Shown here piece after piece: positions 35,055-42,416 of a DNA stretch of 64,000 nt. Every line of letters begins with the position of its first letter. The stretch's first letter is position 1. The position numbers and the translations under genes are program-made. Source of the stretch: Pseudomonadota bacterium (GTDB lineage Bacteria; Myxococcota_A; UBA9042; GCA-2863065); contig SXOX01000276.1 in the NCBI GenBank assembly GCA_005776585.1, positions 142 to 64,141 of the forward strand, written 5' to 3'. The notes below the pieces were generated by a model. It had not been told where the DNA came from and did no database searches. It was given only the letters and a program-made list of their open reading frames with translations.

Positions 35055-37712
35055 ATGGGGGTCACCATGAGCACCAGCGACACGCGTACCATCGACCTGG
35101 TCGTCAACGGCGAGGCGCGGCGCGTGACCGTGCGTGAGGGCGAGTCGTTGCTCGACTGCCTGCGCGACCGCTGCGGCGTCACGAGCACCAAGGACGGCTG
35201 CCAACCCCAGGGGCAGTGCGGCTGCTGCGTCGCGCTCGTGGACGGCAACGCCAAGGTCACGTGCGCGATGTCGGCCGAGAAGGCGCACGGCAAGTCCATC
35301 CTCACCCTGGAGGGCGTGCCGGAGGCCGAGCGGGACCTCTTTGCGCGCGCGTTCGTCCAGGCCGCGGGGCTCCAGTGCGGCTTCTGCATTCCGGGCATCG
35401 TCATGCGGGCCAAGCACCTGCTGGACGAGAACCCGCGACCGACGCGGGCCGAGATCGCCAAGGCCATCGACGTGCACCTCTGTCGCTGCACGGGCTACGT
35501 CCGCATCCTGGACGCCATTGAGCTGGCCGCCGCGGCTCGTCGCGGCGAGGCGACGCCGGAGCCCACGCTCGACGGCGGCGTCGGCGTCTCGCTCCAGCGC
35601 GTCAAGGGGCCGGAGCTGGTGCTCGGGGCGCGCCCGTATGTGGTCGATCTGAGCCCTCCGGGGCTGCTTCACGGCGCGGTCGTGCTCTCGCCGCACGCGC
35701 GGGCGACGGTGCTCCGCATCGACACGGCGCAGGCCGAGGCCGTACCCGGCGTGCTCCGGGTCGCGACCGCCCGCGACGTGCCCGGTGAGCGCTGGTATGG
35801 CCTCATCTACGCCGATTGGCCCGGCTTCGTCGCCGAGGGCGAGGAGGTCCGCTACGTCGGCGACGTCCTGGCCGCCGTCGCAGCCGTCGACGAAGCGACC
35901 GCGCGCGCCGCCGCCGCGCTCGTCCAGGTCGAGTTTGCGCTGCTCACGCCGGTGACCGACCCCGAGGTCGCACTCCAAGATGACGCGCCCCAGGTCAACC
36001 CCAAGCACGCGAACGTCCTGTCGCGGTCGGTCATCCAGCGCGGTGACGTCGACGCGGGGCTCGCGGCCAGCGCACACGTCGTCACCGGCACGTGGCGCAC
36101 GCAGCGCATCGAGCATCTGTACCTCGAGCCGGAGTGCGCGCTCGCCGTGCCGCGCCCCGAGGGTGGCCTCCACCTCTACACGCAAGGGCAGGGCGTCTTC
36201 GACGACCGCCGGCAGGTCGCGAAGTTCCTGGGCCTCGCCGAGGAGCAGGTTTTCGTGGAGCTCGTGCCCAACGGCGGGGCGTTTGGTGGCAAGGAGGACA
36301 TGAGCATCCAGGCGCATGCGGCGCTGCTCTGCCACCTCACGGGCCGGCCGGTGCGCGTGGAGCTCGATCGGGAGGAGTCGATTCGGATGCACCCGAAGCG
36401 CCACCCCATCACGATGCACTACACCGTGGGCTGCGACGCCGATGGGCGCCTGATGGCGGTTCGTGCGCGCATGGTCGGCGACAGCGGAGCCTATGCGTCG
36501 GTCGGCGGCAAGGTGCTGGAGCGTGCCGCGGGTCACGCGTGCGGGCCGTATCGTGTGCCGCACGTGGATGTGCAGTCCGTCGCGGTCTACACCAACAACC
36601 CGCCGTGTGGCGCGATGCGTGGCTTCGGCGCCAATCAGAGCTCGTTCGCCATCGAGGGCTGCATGGACCTGCTGGCTCAGAAGGTCGGCGTCGACGGCTG
36701 GGAAATGCGCTGGCGCAACGCGCTCGACGTCGGGGACGCGTTCTCGACGGGCCAGATCCTCGAGAAGTCCGTCGGCATTCGCAAGACGCTGCTCGCGGTC
36801 AAAGAGCGCTACTACGCTGCGCGCGCCGAGGGCCGCGCCGTGGGCGTCGCCTGCGGCCTCAAGAATAGCGGCCTGGGCAATGGCGCCGAGGAGTGGGGGC
36901 GCTGCCGCCTCGTCGTCGAGGTGGACGGCACGATCTCGCTCTACGGCGGCTTTACCGAGATGGGGCAGGGCCTCCTGACCATCCTGGTCCAGTGCGCCGT
37001 CGAGGTCACGGGCGTCCCAGCGCGGCTGTTCTCACCCAAAGTAGACGCCACCTTCGCGTTGGGCTCGGGGCAGACGACCGGCTCGCGCGCGACGTTGCTG
37101 GGTGGTCGCGCCGTCATCGCGGCGGCGGAGAAGCTGCGCGCCGACCTTGACGCGGGCCTCGCGCTGAAGGACCTCATCGGGCGTGTCTATGCGGGTGACA
37201 TCGTCATCAACGACACGACCCCGCTCAACAAGCCGGTCCCCAAGATCAAGACCCACACGACGTTCGGCTACGCGACGCAGCTCGCCATTCTGGATGCCGC
37301 GGGACGCCTCGAGCGCTTCGTGGCCGCCCACGACGTCGGTCGCGCAATCAACCCGGCGCTCTGCGCGGGACAGATCGAGGGCAGCGTCCATATGGGGCTC
37401 GGCTATGCGCTGACCGAGGACCTGCCTTGCGAGGACGGCATGCCCGTCACGTTCAAGCTGCGCGAGATTGGCGTGCTGCGCGCGCGCGACATGCCGGAGG
37501 TCGAGGTGATCCTCGTGGAGGATCACGAGCCGGAGGGCCCGTTTGGCGCCAAGGGCGTCGGCGAGATCGGGCTCGTCCCCACGGCGGGTGCGGTCGCGGC
37601 GGCGCTCGAGGCGTTCGATGGCATCCGCCGCATGACGTTGCCGATGAAGGACTCGCCAGCAGCTCGTGCCATGAGCGTGGGTAAGCTCCGAAAGCAGGCC
37701 CCTCGTGTCTGA
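35055..37712 (+). CDS. molybdopterin-dependent hydroxylase with fused N-terminal 2x[2Fe-2S] domain (XdhD / Mop aldehyde-oxidoreductase architecture, no FAD domain)
   Basis: 885 aa. CQPQGQCGCCVALVDG...C and QCGFCIPG...CRCTGY. Mo-domain landmarks GGAFGGKE, MRGFGANQ, TEMGQGL, GVGEIG. Alternative ATG at 35067. Confidence 0.85.
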   Translation: MGVTMSTSDTRTIDLVVNGEARRVTVREGESLLDCLRDRCGVTSTKDGCQPQGQCGCCVALVDGNAKVTCAMSAEKAHGKSILTLEGVPEAERDLFARAFVQAAGLQCGFCIPGIVMRAKHLLDENPRPTRAEIAKAIDVHLCRCTGYVRILDAIELAAAARRGEATPEPTLDGGVGVSLQRVKGPELVLGARPYVVDLSPPGLLHGAVVLSPHARATVLRIDTAQAEAVPGVLRVATARDVPGERWYGLIYADWPGFVAEGEEVRYVGDVLAAVAAVDEATARAAAALVQVEFALLTPVTDPEVALQDDAPQVNPKHANVLSRSVIQRGDVDAGLAASAHVVTGTWRTQRIEHLYLEPECALAVPRPEGGLHLYTQGQGVFDDRRQVAKFLGLAEEQVFVELVPNGGAFGGKEDMSIQAHAALLCHLTGRPVRVELDREESIRMHPKRHPITMHYTVGCDADGRLMAVRARMVGDSGAYASVGGKVLERAAGHACGPYRVPHVDVQSVAVYTNNPPCGAMRGFGANQSSFAIEGCMDLLAQKVGVDGWEMRWRNALDVGDAFSTGQILEKSVGIRKTLLAVKERYYAARAEGRAVGVACGLKNSGLGNGAEEWGRCRLVVEVDGTISLYGGFTEMGQGLLTILVQCAVEVTGVPARLFSPKVDATFALGSGQTTGSRATLLGGRAVIAAAEKLRADLDAGLALKDLIGRVYAGDIVINDTTPLNKPVPKIKTHTTFGYATQLAILDAAGRLERFVAAHDVGRAINPALCAGQIEGSVHMGLGYALTEDLPCEDGMPVTFKLREIGVLRARDMPEVEVILVEDHEPEGPFGAKGVGEIGLVPTAGAVAAALEAFDGIRRMTLPMKDSPAARAMSVGKLRKQAPRV

Positions 37713-38688
37713 CGGTACGGTCAACGCGCACACGCACCTCTACAGCGCGCTCGCGCCGTACGGGATGCCGGCCCCAGTGCCACCGCCCGAGAGCTTCGTC
37801 CAGATCCTGGAGCGCATCTGGTGGCGGCTCGACCGCGCGCTCGATGCGGAGAGCCTGGCGGTCTCGGCCCGACTCTACGCCGCGGAGTCGTTGGCACTGG
37901 GGACCACGACGGTGTTCGATCACCACGAGTCGCCGAATCTCATCGAGGGCTCGCTCGACCTCCTCGCCGATGCGTGCGCTGACGTCGGCTTGGAGGCGGT
38001 GCTGTGCTACGGAGTGACCGAGCGCAACTTCGGGCACGACGAGGCGCGGCGCGGCCTGCGTGAGGGGCTCCGGTTTCTCGACGCCAACACGCGACCGCTG
38101 GTGCGCGGTGTGCTCGGGATTCACGCGTCTTTTACGGTGTCTGACGAGACGCTACGCGAGGTCGGCGCCGCGGCACGGGCGGCTGGCGTGCCTGTGCACG
38201 TCCACCTCGCCGAGGACCAGGCCGACGTCACCGACGCACGCGCTCGCGGATATGCGGGTCCGCTCGAGCGACTGCTCGCGCTGGATGCGCTCACTCCAGG
38301 CTCGATCCTCGCGCATGGCGTGCACCTCTCGCCAGAGCAGGTGCGCCGAGCACACGACGCCGGCTGTTGGCTCGTGAACAACCCGCGCTCCAACGCCAAC
38401 AACCGCGTCGGTTGCGCCCAGTCGCTGGCCGCCTCCGGCCGCGTCGCCCTGGGGACCGATGGCTTTCCTGCCGACATGTTGGCCGAGCGCGACGCCGCGG
38501 TGGCCCACGCCGGGTGCGACGCAACGACGGCGCAGGCTCGCTTGGACGCCGGTCTCACGCTTCGCGCCGCGTTCTTCGGCCCTGACCGGCCGCCTCGCGC
38601 GTCACCCGAAACCGCCGTCCTCGAATCACTTCGCGCAGACGCCCGCCGTGTGGCGCCGCGCCTCTTTGAACGTATGAAGGCACTCTAG
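37705..38688 (+). CDS. amidohydrolase, SsnA-like, TIM-barrel only
   Basis: 327 aa. The GTG start overlaps the upstream stop by 8 nt. HxH at residues 9-11 (NAHTHLYS). [18 protein letters not shown] resembles the SsnA segment as I recall it. Also [23 protein letters not shown]. Confidence 0.75.
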
Positions 38689-41472: not shown

Positions 41473-42416
41473 GTGTGGTGACCATCGCCATGACCGAGAC
41501 GTGCAACGTGTTCCCCGACATGCCGGCGCGCGTCGCGGACCTGGGCGTGCTCACCGGCAAGCTCGACGCGTTGCGTGACGCCAACCTCCGCCACCACGCG
41601 GAGCTCATCGGGCTCGCGGCAGGGCAGGGCGCCGCGATCGTCGGCCTGGGCGAGCTGTTCGCCGCGCCGTATTTCGCGCTCGACCACTACCCGCAGTTTC
41701 TCGCCCTTGCGGAGGACGCCGCGACCGGGCCCAGCGTTCAGGCGATGGCGCACGCGGCACGAACGCACGGAGTCGTCGTCATTGCGCCCATCTACGAGCT
41801 GAATCCTATCACCGGCCGGCGCTTCAACACGGCGGTCGTCCTCGATCGCGATGGCTCCGTGCTCGGCAAGTACCGGAAAACGCACATCCCGCAGGGCACC
41901 AACGACAAGGGGAGCTTCCACGAGACGCGGTACTACCAGTCGAGCGACGGTCAGCTCGGGCCCATGCCCAAAAACCGCTCGCAGAACCCGTACTTCCCCG
42001 TCTTCGAGACCCACCTGGGCCGGCTCGGCGTCGCCATCTGCTATGACCGCCACTTTGACGGCGTGATGTATTCGCTTGCGGCCAACGGCGCCGAGATCGT
42101 CTTCTGCCCCGCCGTGACGTTCGGGACCAAGTCCCAGCGCGTCTGGCATCAGGAGTTCTTCGTCGACGCCGTGCGCCATAACCTGTTCATCGCGGGCTCC
42201 AACCGCAAAGGAACCGAGCCACCGTGGAGTATCACGTACTTCGGCGAGAGCTACGTCTGCGGACCCAACGGCCTCGTGCCCAACCGCAGCACGCACTCGG
42301 AGCTGGTCCTGTGCGACCTCGACCTCGCCGAGCTACGCTCGCCCGATCCGTCCGGTTGGAATCTCCCGCGCGACCTACGGCCGGACATCTACTCTCCGCG
42401 GCCCGCGCGGTCGTGA
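41469..42416 (+). CDS. carbon-nitrogen hydrolase (nitrilase superfamily; decarbamoylase/beta-ureidopropionase-like)
   Basis: 315 aa with an ATGA overlap. E-K-C triad contexts [29 protein letters not shown]. Confidence 0.85.

Follow-up and report, generated by a model that had tools for sequence, protein, structure and literature searches.

The window analysed here is a 64,000-nucleotide stretch of contig SXOX01000276.1 (positions 142 to 64,141 of the forward strand; GenBank assembly GCA_005776585.1), from a bacterium deposited as Pseudomonadota and placed by GTDB in the Myxococcota_A. It carries five consecutive genes, whose products are hereafter named P1 to P5, and, further downstream, a sixth gene encoding a homologue of the catalytic part of YgfK, hereafter named the YgfK core. 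Taken together, these genes probably encode the reductive degradation of uric acid by way of 2,8-dioxopurine, in a streamlined variant of the pathway found in environmental bacteria. Their positions in the window are as follows:

35055..37712, + strand: P1, an 885-aa fusion of two [2Fe-2S] domains with a molybdopterin hydroxylase, without an FAD domain, assigned to the XdhD/2,8-dioxopurine dehydrogenase (DOPDH) type
37705..38688, + strand: P2, a 327-aa SsnA homologue comprising the catalytic TIM barrel only
38699..40195, + strand: P3, a 498-aa pyridoxal phosphate (PLP) enzyme of fold type II, CysK/CBS clade, with extra N- and C-terminal helical regions; uncharacterised family
40192..41472, + strand: P4, a 426-aa fold-type II PLP enzyme of the ThrC/dehydratase/racemase clade; uncharacterised family
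41469..42416, + strand: P5, a 315-aa nitrilase-superfamily ureido (N-carbamoyl) hydrolase, occupying a variable decarbamoylase slot
44997..46934, - strand: the YgfK core, a 645-aa homologue of the N-terminal catalytic domain of YgfK (2,8-dioxopurine reductase) with a C-terminal Fe-S region

The window has a G+C content of about 70%, and third-position GC lies between 0.82 and 0.92 in all five + strand open reading frames (ORFs), as in real genes of the window. Reading of the sequence at the junctions showed that P1 and P2 overlap by 8 nt (GTG at 37705 over TGA at 37710-37712), that a 10-nt gap containing AGGAG separates the TAG of P2 (38686-38688) from the ATG of P3 (38699), and that P3 and P4 meet at GTGA (40192-40195), P4 having an internal GTG start. 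P4 and P5 meet at ATGA (41469-41472), with GGAGG 5' of it. The five genes are real and form a tightly coupled operon. This had been proposed in an initial annotation made from the sequence alone, and both the ORF list and the reading of all four junctions agree with it. As a unit it was incomplete: the genes and their junctions exist, but the YgfK-core gene on the - strand had been overlooked. A scan of 34500-47400 for promoter and terminator consensus sites found them no more frequent than in shuffled sequence, and an Rfam scan returned three tRNAs only and no riboswitch.

P1 matched the profile TIGR03311 (“selenium-dependent xanthine dehydrogenase”) over positions 2-846 of 848 with 939.2 bits, and so passes the curated cut-off of 830.45 in the profile check suggested for it. 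Its Pfam domains (Fer2_2, the a/b-hammerhead domain Ald_Xan_dh_C and MoCoBD_1/2) and its motifs, namely both [2Fe-2S] cysteine motifs and the Mo-site motifs GGAFGGKED, GAMRGFG and AKGVGEIG, agree with the earlier description of two [2Fe-2S] motifs fused to a molybdopterin hydroxylase body. A gene for an FAD subunit had been reported as missing from the operon; none was found in the entire 64 kb, either by Pfam scans of the called ORFs or by tblastn with E. coli XdhB and YgfM. By its sequence, P1 belongs to the FAD-less XdhD/DOPDH type, and its orthologues in related loci share 54-76% identity with it. Glu606 of E. coli XdhD has been reported as a determinant of the regiospecificity of the conversion of urate to 2,8-dioxopurine. 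The stretch around this residue aligns poorly with P1, and at the aligned position the orthologues have either Glu or Gly.

P2 matched the Pfam family Amidohydro_1 and shares 39.6% identity with E. coli SsnA, limited to residues 57-325 of 442. Against the SsnA profiles it scored 262.3 bits for NF005540 (cut-off 444) and 243.5 for TIGR03314 (cut-off 455.5), with positions 60-325 of 444 matched. Compared with full-length SsnA (about 440 aa), it lacks about 55 residues at the N-terminus and about 55 at the C-terminus. The start codon lies 8 residues ahead of the HxH motif, and just 18 codons separate the upstream in-frame stop from HxH. All the motifs for metal binding and catalysis (HxH, HxxE, His and Asp) are kept, as NAHTHLY, HVHLAED, AHGVHL and LGTDG. 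The initial label “SsnA-like” therefore stands as to homology and motifs, for a protein trimmed to profile positions 60-325 and scoring under the TIGR03314 cut-off. In the amidohydrolase superfamily, the terminal residues absent from P2 form an accessory beta-sandwich domain. In related loci, a short class of SsnA (319-357 residues from HxH to the stop) is found in Myxococcota, Acidobacteriota and Gemmatimonadota, and full-length SsnA (381-406 residues) in Chloroflexota and Actinomycetota.

The YgfK core lies 6.3 kb downstream of P2, so that the XdhD, SsnA and YgfK types all fall within 12 kb. It matched TIGR03315 with E=1.6e-126 over positions 4-398 of 1012 (423 bits, cut-off 835), and blastp against E. 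coli YgfK gave 41% identity over residues 5-406 and 35% over residues 897-968. Residues 407-896 of the E. coli protein (full length about 1030 aa), which form the central GltD-like FAD/NAD(P)H module, have no counterpart. Fer4 was the only Pfam match, at residues 442-535. Proteins of 633-700 aa with this architecture form a large environmental family, annotated as “putative selenate reductase” or “glutamate synthase”. The YgfK core is part of this system, and the earlier pathway proposal omitted a reductase step because this gene on the - strand had been missed.

P5 matched CN_hydrolase (PF00795) with 152.6 bits and reached no equivalog cut-off (aguB, 143 against 410). Its top PDB matches were beta-ureidopropionase (E=1.6e-27), N-carbamoylputrescine amidohydrolase and N-carbamoyl-D-amino-acid hydrolase, with Glu, Lys and Cys aligned. 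With the triad aligned to beta-ureidopropionase and ureido hydrolases as nearest solved relatives, the first description of P5 as a decarbamoylase-like member of the nitrilase superfamily with an intact E-K-C triad is borne out.

P3 gave a weak PALP match in Pfam. Its NCBIfam matches at E≤1e-3 were cysK, cysKM, CBS and cysM only, and its PDB matches, by sequence as by fold, were all cysteine synthases or CBS. The AlphaFold2 model (mean predicted local distance difference test score, pLDDT, 88) likewise had cysteine synthases and CBS as best folds, plus the extra N- and C-terminal helices. Invariant in the family are the PLP lysine Lys112 (AHKVLAAY), the carboxylate loop STGNY, NQF and GSAGT, and homologues are 55-73% identical between phyla. 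P3 retains the complete equipment of a CysK-type enzyme for handling an alpha-amino acid that carries a leaving group at the beta position. The initial annotation was right in recognising a fold-type II PLP enzyme of about 500 aa, but P3 is not OrtB-like, as that annotation had it: its sequence and fold matches are to cysteine synthase and CBS only.

P4 scored 116 bits against PALP and carries the motif SGSHKARH. Its best folds (AlphaFold2 model, pLDDT 93) were threonine synthases, serine racemases and threonine deaminases, in line with the ThrC-like label given before. It has an N-terminal Cys-rich segment, CxxC...C...H, and its invariant segments are SHK132 and two others of 15 and 10 residues (letters not shown). 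Neither P3 nor P4 matched E. coli YgeX by blastp at E≤1e-3, no model for diaminopropionate (DAP) lyase was among their NCBIfam matches, and no DAP ammonia-lyase was among the top 50 fold matches of either. P3 and P4 are kin to YgeX in the shared fold only. The fold searches returned generic CysK/CBS and ThrC/racemase/dehydratase structures only, with no function-specific neighbour. A literature search found no published description of the pair, and this conserved PLP pair is a new part of the cluster. In two longer homologues, P0002 (665 aa, of P3) and P0125 (531 aa, of P4), an internal stretch of about 150 and 60 residues, respectively, is repeated in tandem. They were rejected as informative domain fusions, their own sequence being duplicated internally; the duplications are most likely assembly artefacts.

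The genomic environment of the P3 family was assessed in 85 loci anchored on P3, an XdhD orthologue being counted at an identity of at least 45%. P4 lies directly downstream of P3 in 56 of the 85 loci, and homologues of the YgfK core occur in 11. XdhD is present in 27, belonging to Acidobacteriota, Myxococcota, Gemmatimonadota, Betaproteobacteria, Chloroflexota and Actinomycetota. Among these 27 XdhD loci, SsnA was found in 26 and P4 in 26, and the order XdhD-SsnA-P3-P4 recurs in loci of six phyla. Since XdhD-SsnA and P3-P4 are adjacent in six phyla and in varied orders, their association points to a functional link and not to accident. The block first described as five genes is therefore co-conserved for P1 to P4, whereas P5 is variable.

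The remaining positions of the 27 XdhD loci are filled in different ways. The reductase is a YgfK core in 9 loci and a luciferase-like (F420-type) enzyme in 10, without overlap, and 3 more carry a PreA/UacX-like reductase. Carbamoyltransferases are present in 20/27, often two in tandem, and carbamate kinase in 11/27; a YgeY-like M20 peptidase was found in seven loci, a P5-type CN hydrolase in two, a HyuA-like hydantoinase in five and YgeX in one. The reductase and decarbamoylase slots are thus interchangeable between loci. P5 fills a slot taken by different decarbamoylases in different lineages: close orthologues of P5 adjoining P4 are confined to L009 and L017 (59-63% identity) and to L085, whose cluster holds a CN_hydrolase gene.

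Individual loci illustrate this modularity. L017 (Vicinamibacteria) has the same gene set as the window, P5 included, with a YgfK core downstream on the opposite strand, and L085 (Polyangiaceae) combines XdhD, SsnA, an M20 peptidase, a CN hydrolase, a YgfK core, P3 and P4. L002 carries a HyuA-like gene (46%), XdhD, short SsnA, P3, P4, YgeW (60% identical) and YgeY (53%). L087 and L088 are compact operons of the order P3-P4-OTC-XdhD-SsnA-LLM, with a second OTC downstream (OTC, carbamoyltransferase; LLM, luciferase-like enzyme). An independent second anchor, the YgfK core instead of P3, led to further loci (L089-L092) and to the same partner genes. L089 contains XdhD (72% identical), short SsnA and P4, L090 an NCS1 nucleobase permease, an M20 peptidase and a CN hydrolase, and L092 carbamate kinase, YgeY (53%) and YgeW (62%); L091 was uninformative. 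The classical downstream set is mixed with genes of the variant in L002, L020, L036 and L092. A conventional three-component xanthine dehydrogenase (XDH) lies next door in several related loci, and one may speculate that conventional XDH, XdhD and the reductase could together make the conversion of hypoxanthine or xanthine redox-balanced.

Some of these loci show further associations. In a group comprising L030, L033, L035, L046, L056, L063, L066-L068, L071 and L082 (at about 10001-14300), P3 homologues that are 57-66% identical are found without P4 or XdhD and are tightly linked, in one operon, to the genes of a luciferase-like oxidoreductase and of two CoA-transferase subunits of the glutaconate type. 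Beside this operon lie a LivJ-type ABC transporter and genes of F420 biosynthesis (FbiC, CofE-like, Fno-like). This arrangement, which occurs in Alpha- and Betaproteobacteria and in one Bacteroidota metagenome-assembled genome (MAG), suggests a second metabolic context for P3. In L053 (8599-14330, a Nocardioides MAG), two full-length SsnA paralogues of 456 aa each flank P3-P4; one of them may take over the hydantoinase step. The PreA/UacX-like reductase (cluster c28, e.g. L042 4537-5748) has a dihydroorotate-dehydrogenase fold with two [4Fe-4S] clusters at its C-terminus. Its gene adjoins XdhD in the Chloroflexia loci L031, L034 and L042 and is also found in L032 (a Myxococcales MAG).

The upstream half of the gene set maps onto known chemistry, because the pathway of XdhD, YgfK and SsnA was reconstituted in 2025. 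Two studies described a route from urate through 2,8-dioxopurine, a reduced intermediate, ureidomethylhydantoin, 2,3-diureidopropionate and diaminopropionate to pyruvate (bioRxiv 10.1101/2025.05.19.654654; bioRxiv 10.1101/2025.04.24.650524). According to the same studies, XdhD (XdhAC/DOPDH) reduces urate to 2,8-dioxopurine, YgfK (DOPOR), or UacX in C. difficile, reduces the ring, SsnA yields ureidomethylhydantoin by hydrolysis and HyuA opens the hydantoin to 2,3-diureidopropionate. The ureido groups are removed by YgeW (with the carbamate kinase YqeA) or UacY, together with YgeY, and from 2,3-diaminopropionate YgeX forms pyruvate and ammonia. The clostridial XdhAC has no FAD subunit and does not use NAD(P)H, and Liu et al. 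found the pathway enriched in host-associated Bacillota (bioRxiv 10.1101/2025.04.24.650524). Among the uncharacterised variants noted by Li et al. are Chloroflexota clusters that hold a putative F420-dependent reductase; PLP enzymes were counted in that study by Pfam PF00291 (“YgeX”) only, and P3 and P4 were not told apart (bioRxiv 10.1101/2025.05.19.654654).

Compared with the E. coli ygeW-xdhD cluster (bioRxiv 10.1101/2025.05.19.654654), the window shares homologues of XdhD, YgfK and SsnA and a common logic of dehydroxylation, ring reduction, ring hydrolysis, decarbamoylation and a PLP-dependent end step. Unlike it, the window lacks YgfM, the FAD/NAD(P)H module of YgfK and the accessory segments of SsnA, and in place of HyuA, YgeW, YqeA, YgeY, YgeX, YqeB/C and MocA it has a CN hydrolase along with two unrelated PLP enzymes of fold type II. 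The kinship with the E. coli ygf/yge purine cluster and the difference in partners had both been noted in the initial annotation. The FAD-less fused Fe-S/Mo enzyme recalls the pathway of Clostridium sporogenes and C. difficile (XdhAC/DOPDH, the clostridial one being NAD(P)H-independent), and C. difficile likewise has, in UacX, a reductase that lacks an FAD domain and, in UacY, a decarbamoylase that works by hydrolysis and not by phosphorolysis. In contrast to the clostridia, the reductase in the window is a YgfK core and not a PydA-like UacX, the hydrolase is of the nitrilase superfamily and not D-aminoacylase-like as UacY, and the window has P3 and P4 but neither HyuA nor YgeX. The hosts also differ, with environmental Myxococcota, Acidobacteriota, Chloroflexota and Actinomycetota for the variant and gut Bacillota for the clostridial type.

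The Chloroflexota SsnA clusters mentioned by Li et al. belong to the same wider cluster family as the window; loci such as L087, L088 and L042 hold XdhD, SsnA, a luciferase-like enzyme, P3 and P4. The window differs from them by a YgfK core instead of the luciferase-like enzyme, by short instead of full-length SsnA, and by a CN hydrolase where they have two carbamoyltransferases and carbamate kinase. Likeness to the reductive pyrimidine (Pyd) pathway (PydA/PydB/beta-ureidopropionase) was also seen in the ring reduction by a flavo-Fe-S enzyme resembling dihydropyrimidine dehydrogenase, the ring opening by an amidohydrolase and the ureido hydrolysis by the CN-hydrolase family; unlike the Pyd pathway, the window has a Mo-hydroxylase step before the reduction and two PLP enzymes after it. 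A literature search found no characterised pathway with exactly this gene set, as had been supposed. The proposal of an undescribed pathway thus holds for the gene set and for P3/P4, but the upstream XdhD/YgfK/SsnA half was described in 2025. The new elements are the P3/P4 pair, the barrel-only SsnA, the YgfK core without NAD(P)H module and the wide spread in free-living bacteria.

In the proposed pathway, P1 would interconvert urate and 2,8-dioxopurine, as its family membership suggests, and the YgfK core would then reduce the pyrimidine ring of 2,8-dioxopurine. Both probably take electrons from a ferredoxin-type donor, because neither has a pyridine-nucleotide module. The order of events differs here from the initial annotation, which had P1 hydroxylate a heterocycle: in the characterised pathway, the Mo enzyme dehydroxylates urate and the reductase step comes next. 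P2, with its 40% identity to SsnA and intact metal-ligand motifs, would hydrolyse the reduced ring to a ureido-hydantoin-type product. The hydantoinase step may be encoded elsewhere, done by P2 or bypassed. The family of P5 and the swapping of enzymes in its slot suggest that it removes ureido groups hydrolytically, replacing carbamoyltransferase and carbamate kinase or M20 enzymes. Most tentatively of all these steps, P3 and P4 might perform the terminal C-N lyase step on a beta-N-substituted alanine, giving pyruvate and ammonia, the role of YgeX in E. coli. The sequence of ring opening, decarbamoylation and then PLP chemistry put forward earlier is consistent with this evidence.

Several observations weigh against assigning the window to uric-acid degradation. 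P1 is just 27% identical to E. coli XdhD and 31% to XdhA; it appears about as near to XdhA as to XdhD, and substrate specificity within TIGR03311, a family defined from context rather than assay, is unproven. Owing to their truncation, neither P2 nor the YgfK core reaches the curated cut-off for the whole protein. The YgfK-core gene lies on the opposite strand, convergent with the operon and with a toxin-antitoxin pair and then a nucleotidyltransferase gene between it and P5, and co-regulation of the two is unproven. The upstream trio of XdhD, YgfK and SsnA types is present at 35055-38688 and 44997-46934, and the downstream set of HyuA, YgeW/UacY, YgeY and YgeX is absent: tblastn with the E. 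coli proteins found no homologue of HyuA, YgeW, YgeY, YgeX (at E≤1e-4) or YqeA/B/C in the 64-kb window. Pfam scans of the window ORFs also found no YqeB/YqeC, which together with SelD are markers of selenium dependence, MocA is missing from the window, unlike the E. coli cluster, and a single decarbamoylase is available for two ureido groups. The low identity of P1, the way its family was defined, the trimmed P2 and YgfK core and the absence from the window of a urate/xanthine transporter and of a conventional XDH (Pfam scans) would also suit the same chemistry on a heterocycle other than urate (a purine, pteridine, pyrimidine-like or modified or oxidised base), with P1 as a hydroxylase. We consider this unlikely, given that XdhD, YgfK and SsnA homologues co-occur as in the characterised urate clusters, that related loci add the urate-specific downstream enzymes YgeW (60-62%), YgeY (53%), carbamate kinase and HyuA-like proteins, and that several carry a three-component XDH or an NCS1 nucleobase permease.

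Other loci bear on whether the operon encodes one pathway at all. P3-P4 pairs occur without XdhD within 10 kb, and without conserved neighbours, in 30 loci, and P3 occurs without P4 or XdhD, together with a two-subunit CoA-transferase and an F420-type enzyme, in 13 proteobacterial or Bacteroidota loci. Besides P3 and P4, L020 carries an orthologue of YgeX (46% identical) together with a HyuA-like gene, and L089 has P4 without P3. These cases, which also count against the uric-acid assignment, could be explained if P3-P4, with or without P5, formed an amino-acid module of their own (for example acting on diaminopropionate, a beta-substituted alanine or a ureido amino acid, whatever its source) recruited beside XdhD-SsnA and not part of one linear pathway. 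Such a composite operon is distinctly unlikely, as P2 to P5 are joined in the window by a 10-nt gap and 4-nt overlaps, XdhD-SsnA recurs beside P3-P4 in six phyla with varied gene orders, and many of the “stand-alone” loci are short contigs in which gene absence is uninformative. CysK-clade enzymes are able to perform beta-replacement with N-heterocyclic nucleophiles, and Myxococcota, to which the RCC1, PEGA and SNF2-SWIM genes of the window and the best-matching loci suggest that the host is akin, are rich in secondary metabolism. A biosynthetic block, in which the CysK- and ThrC-like enzymes start from a modified purine or pyrimidine and supply a secondary metabolite with a non-proteinogenic amino acid such as a heterocyclyl-alanine, has nevertheless very little probability in our view: Pfam scans of the window found no genes for non-ribosomal peptide synthetases, polyketide synthases, ligases or export nearby, the carbamate kinase and carbamoyltransferases of related loci are a catabolic, ATP-yielding signature, and core catabolism typically shows such a spread, over six phyla with identities of 55-75%.

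Within the uric-acid reading, the role of P3 and P4 can be narrowed to some extent. It is possible, and we propose it tentatively, that both act on beta-N-substituted alanines, e.g. diaminopropionate or ureido-alanine. As L020 keeps YgeX beside P3 and P4, the PLP pair is not a mere YgeX substitute; plain replacement of HyuA and YgeX by P3 and P4 was likewise rejected, the locus having a HyuA-like gene in addition and HyuA-like genes lying directly beside P3 in L014, L020, L027, L044 and L047. An obligate P3-P4 complex is unlikely, with P4 found without P3 in L089 and P3 without P4 in many loci. A more far-reaching proposal, about which we are rather doubtful, is that P3 and P4 represent a new lower branch of anaerobic purine catabolism. 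In such a branch, the C3N2 backbone would be handled differently from the HyuA/YgeY/YgeX route, and NAD(P)H-independent XdhD and YgfK cores would be fed by ferredoxin or F420; among Acidobacteriota, Myxococcota, Chloroflexota and Actinomycetota of soil and water, the branch would prevail over the gut-type pathway. One possibility would be beta-elimination or beta-replacement on ureido- or amino-alanine, bypassing the hydantoinase or one decarbamoylation.

The genes around the system are of mixed nature. On its 5' side, the operon is flanked by genes unrelated to such metabolism, namely a SNF2/SWIM helicase gene, a hypothetical gene and an RCC1-repeat gene. On its 3' side, at 42459-43206 (+), the gene for a HEPN-type nucleotidyltransferase substrate-binding protein (PF08780, 139 aa) overlaps that of a minimal nucleotidyltransferase (MNT; Polbeta/NTP_transf_2, 111 aa). 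The two make up a toxin-antitoxin-like pair of the HEPN/MNT kind, which has been inserted between P5 and the YgfK core; a 332-aa ORF at 42930-43928 (-) is probably not a gene. There follows at 43945-45000 (+) a 351-aa NTP_transf_8 (PF12281) nucleotidyltransferase gene, which had no NCBIfam match and whose stop overlaps the end of the convergent YgfK-core gene. The HEPN/MNT pair and the NTP_transf_8 gene were rejected as pathway members, as no related locus contains a homologue. Beyond the YgfK core, at 47240-49617, lie genes for a QueG-like epoxyqueuosine reductase, a SurE nucleotidase and a phosphoribosyltransferase, which are nucleotide-related and conserved in no related locus.

Three more distant features of the window were recorded. 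An apolipoprotein N-acyltransferase-like ORF of 910 aa at 17934-20666 (+) has LNT_N at residues 45-202 and CN_hydrolase at residues 707-869, which implies an insertion of about 500 residues or a mis-called start. At 23631-28508, 6.5 kb upstream of the operon, the tripartite ATP-independent periplasmic (TRAP) transporter genes DctP, DctQ and DctM stand beside a divergent gene for a TAtT-type T-component; no link between these genes and the cluster was found in related loci. A tRNA-Val(CAC) at 57473-57547 (-) lies within the 5' end of the longest phosphoglucomutase ORF (55731-57614, -), and the true start of that gene is therefore further downstream.

The reductive urate pathway worked out in 2025 was presented as a host-associated trait, mostly of Bacillota. 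The window and about 30 related loci point to a modular version of it in free-living bacteria of six phyla, marked by redox enzymes without pyridine-nucleotide modules, a barrel-only SsnA, interchangeable decarbamoylases and two conserved PLP enzymes. An assignment of P3 and P4 would correct the propagated annotations “cysteine synthase”, “threonine synthase”, “glutamate synthase” and “putative selenate reductase”. The hydrolytic step and the NAD(P)H-independent redox enzymes may offer simpler parts for engineered urate-degrading probiotics. Assigning P3 and P4 would also complete an environmental route of anoxic purine-nitrogen recycling.

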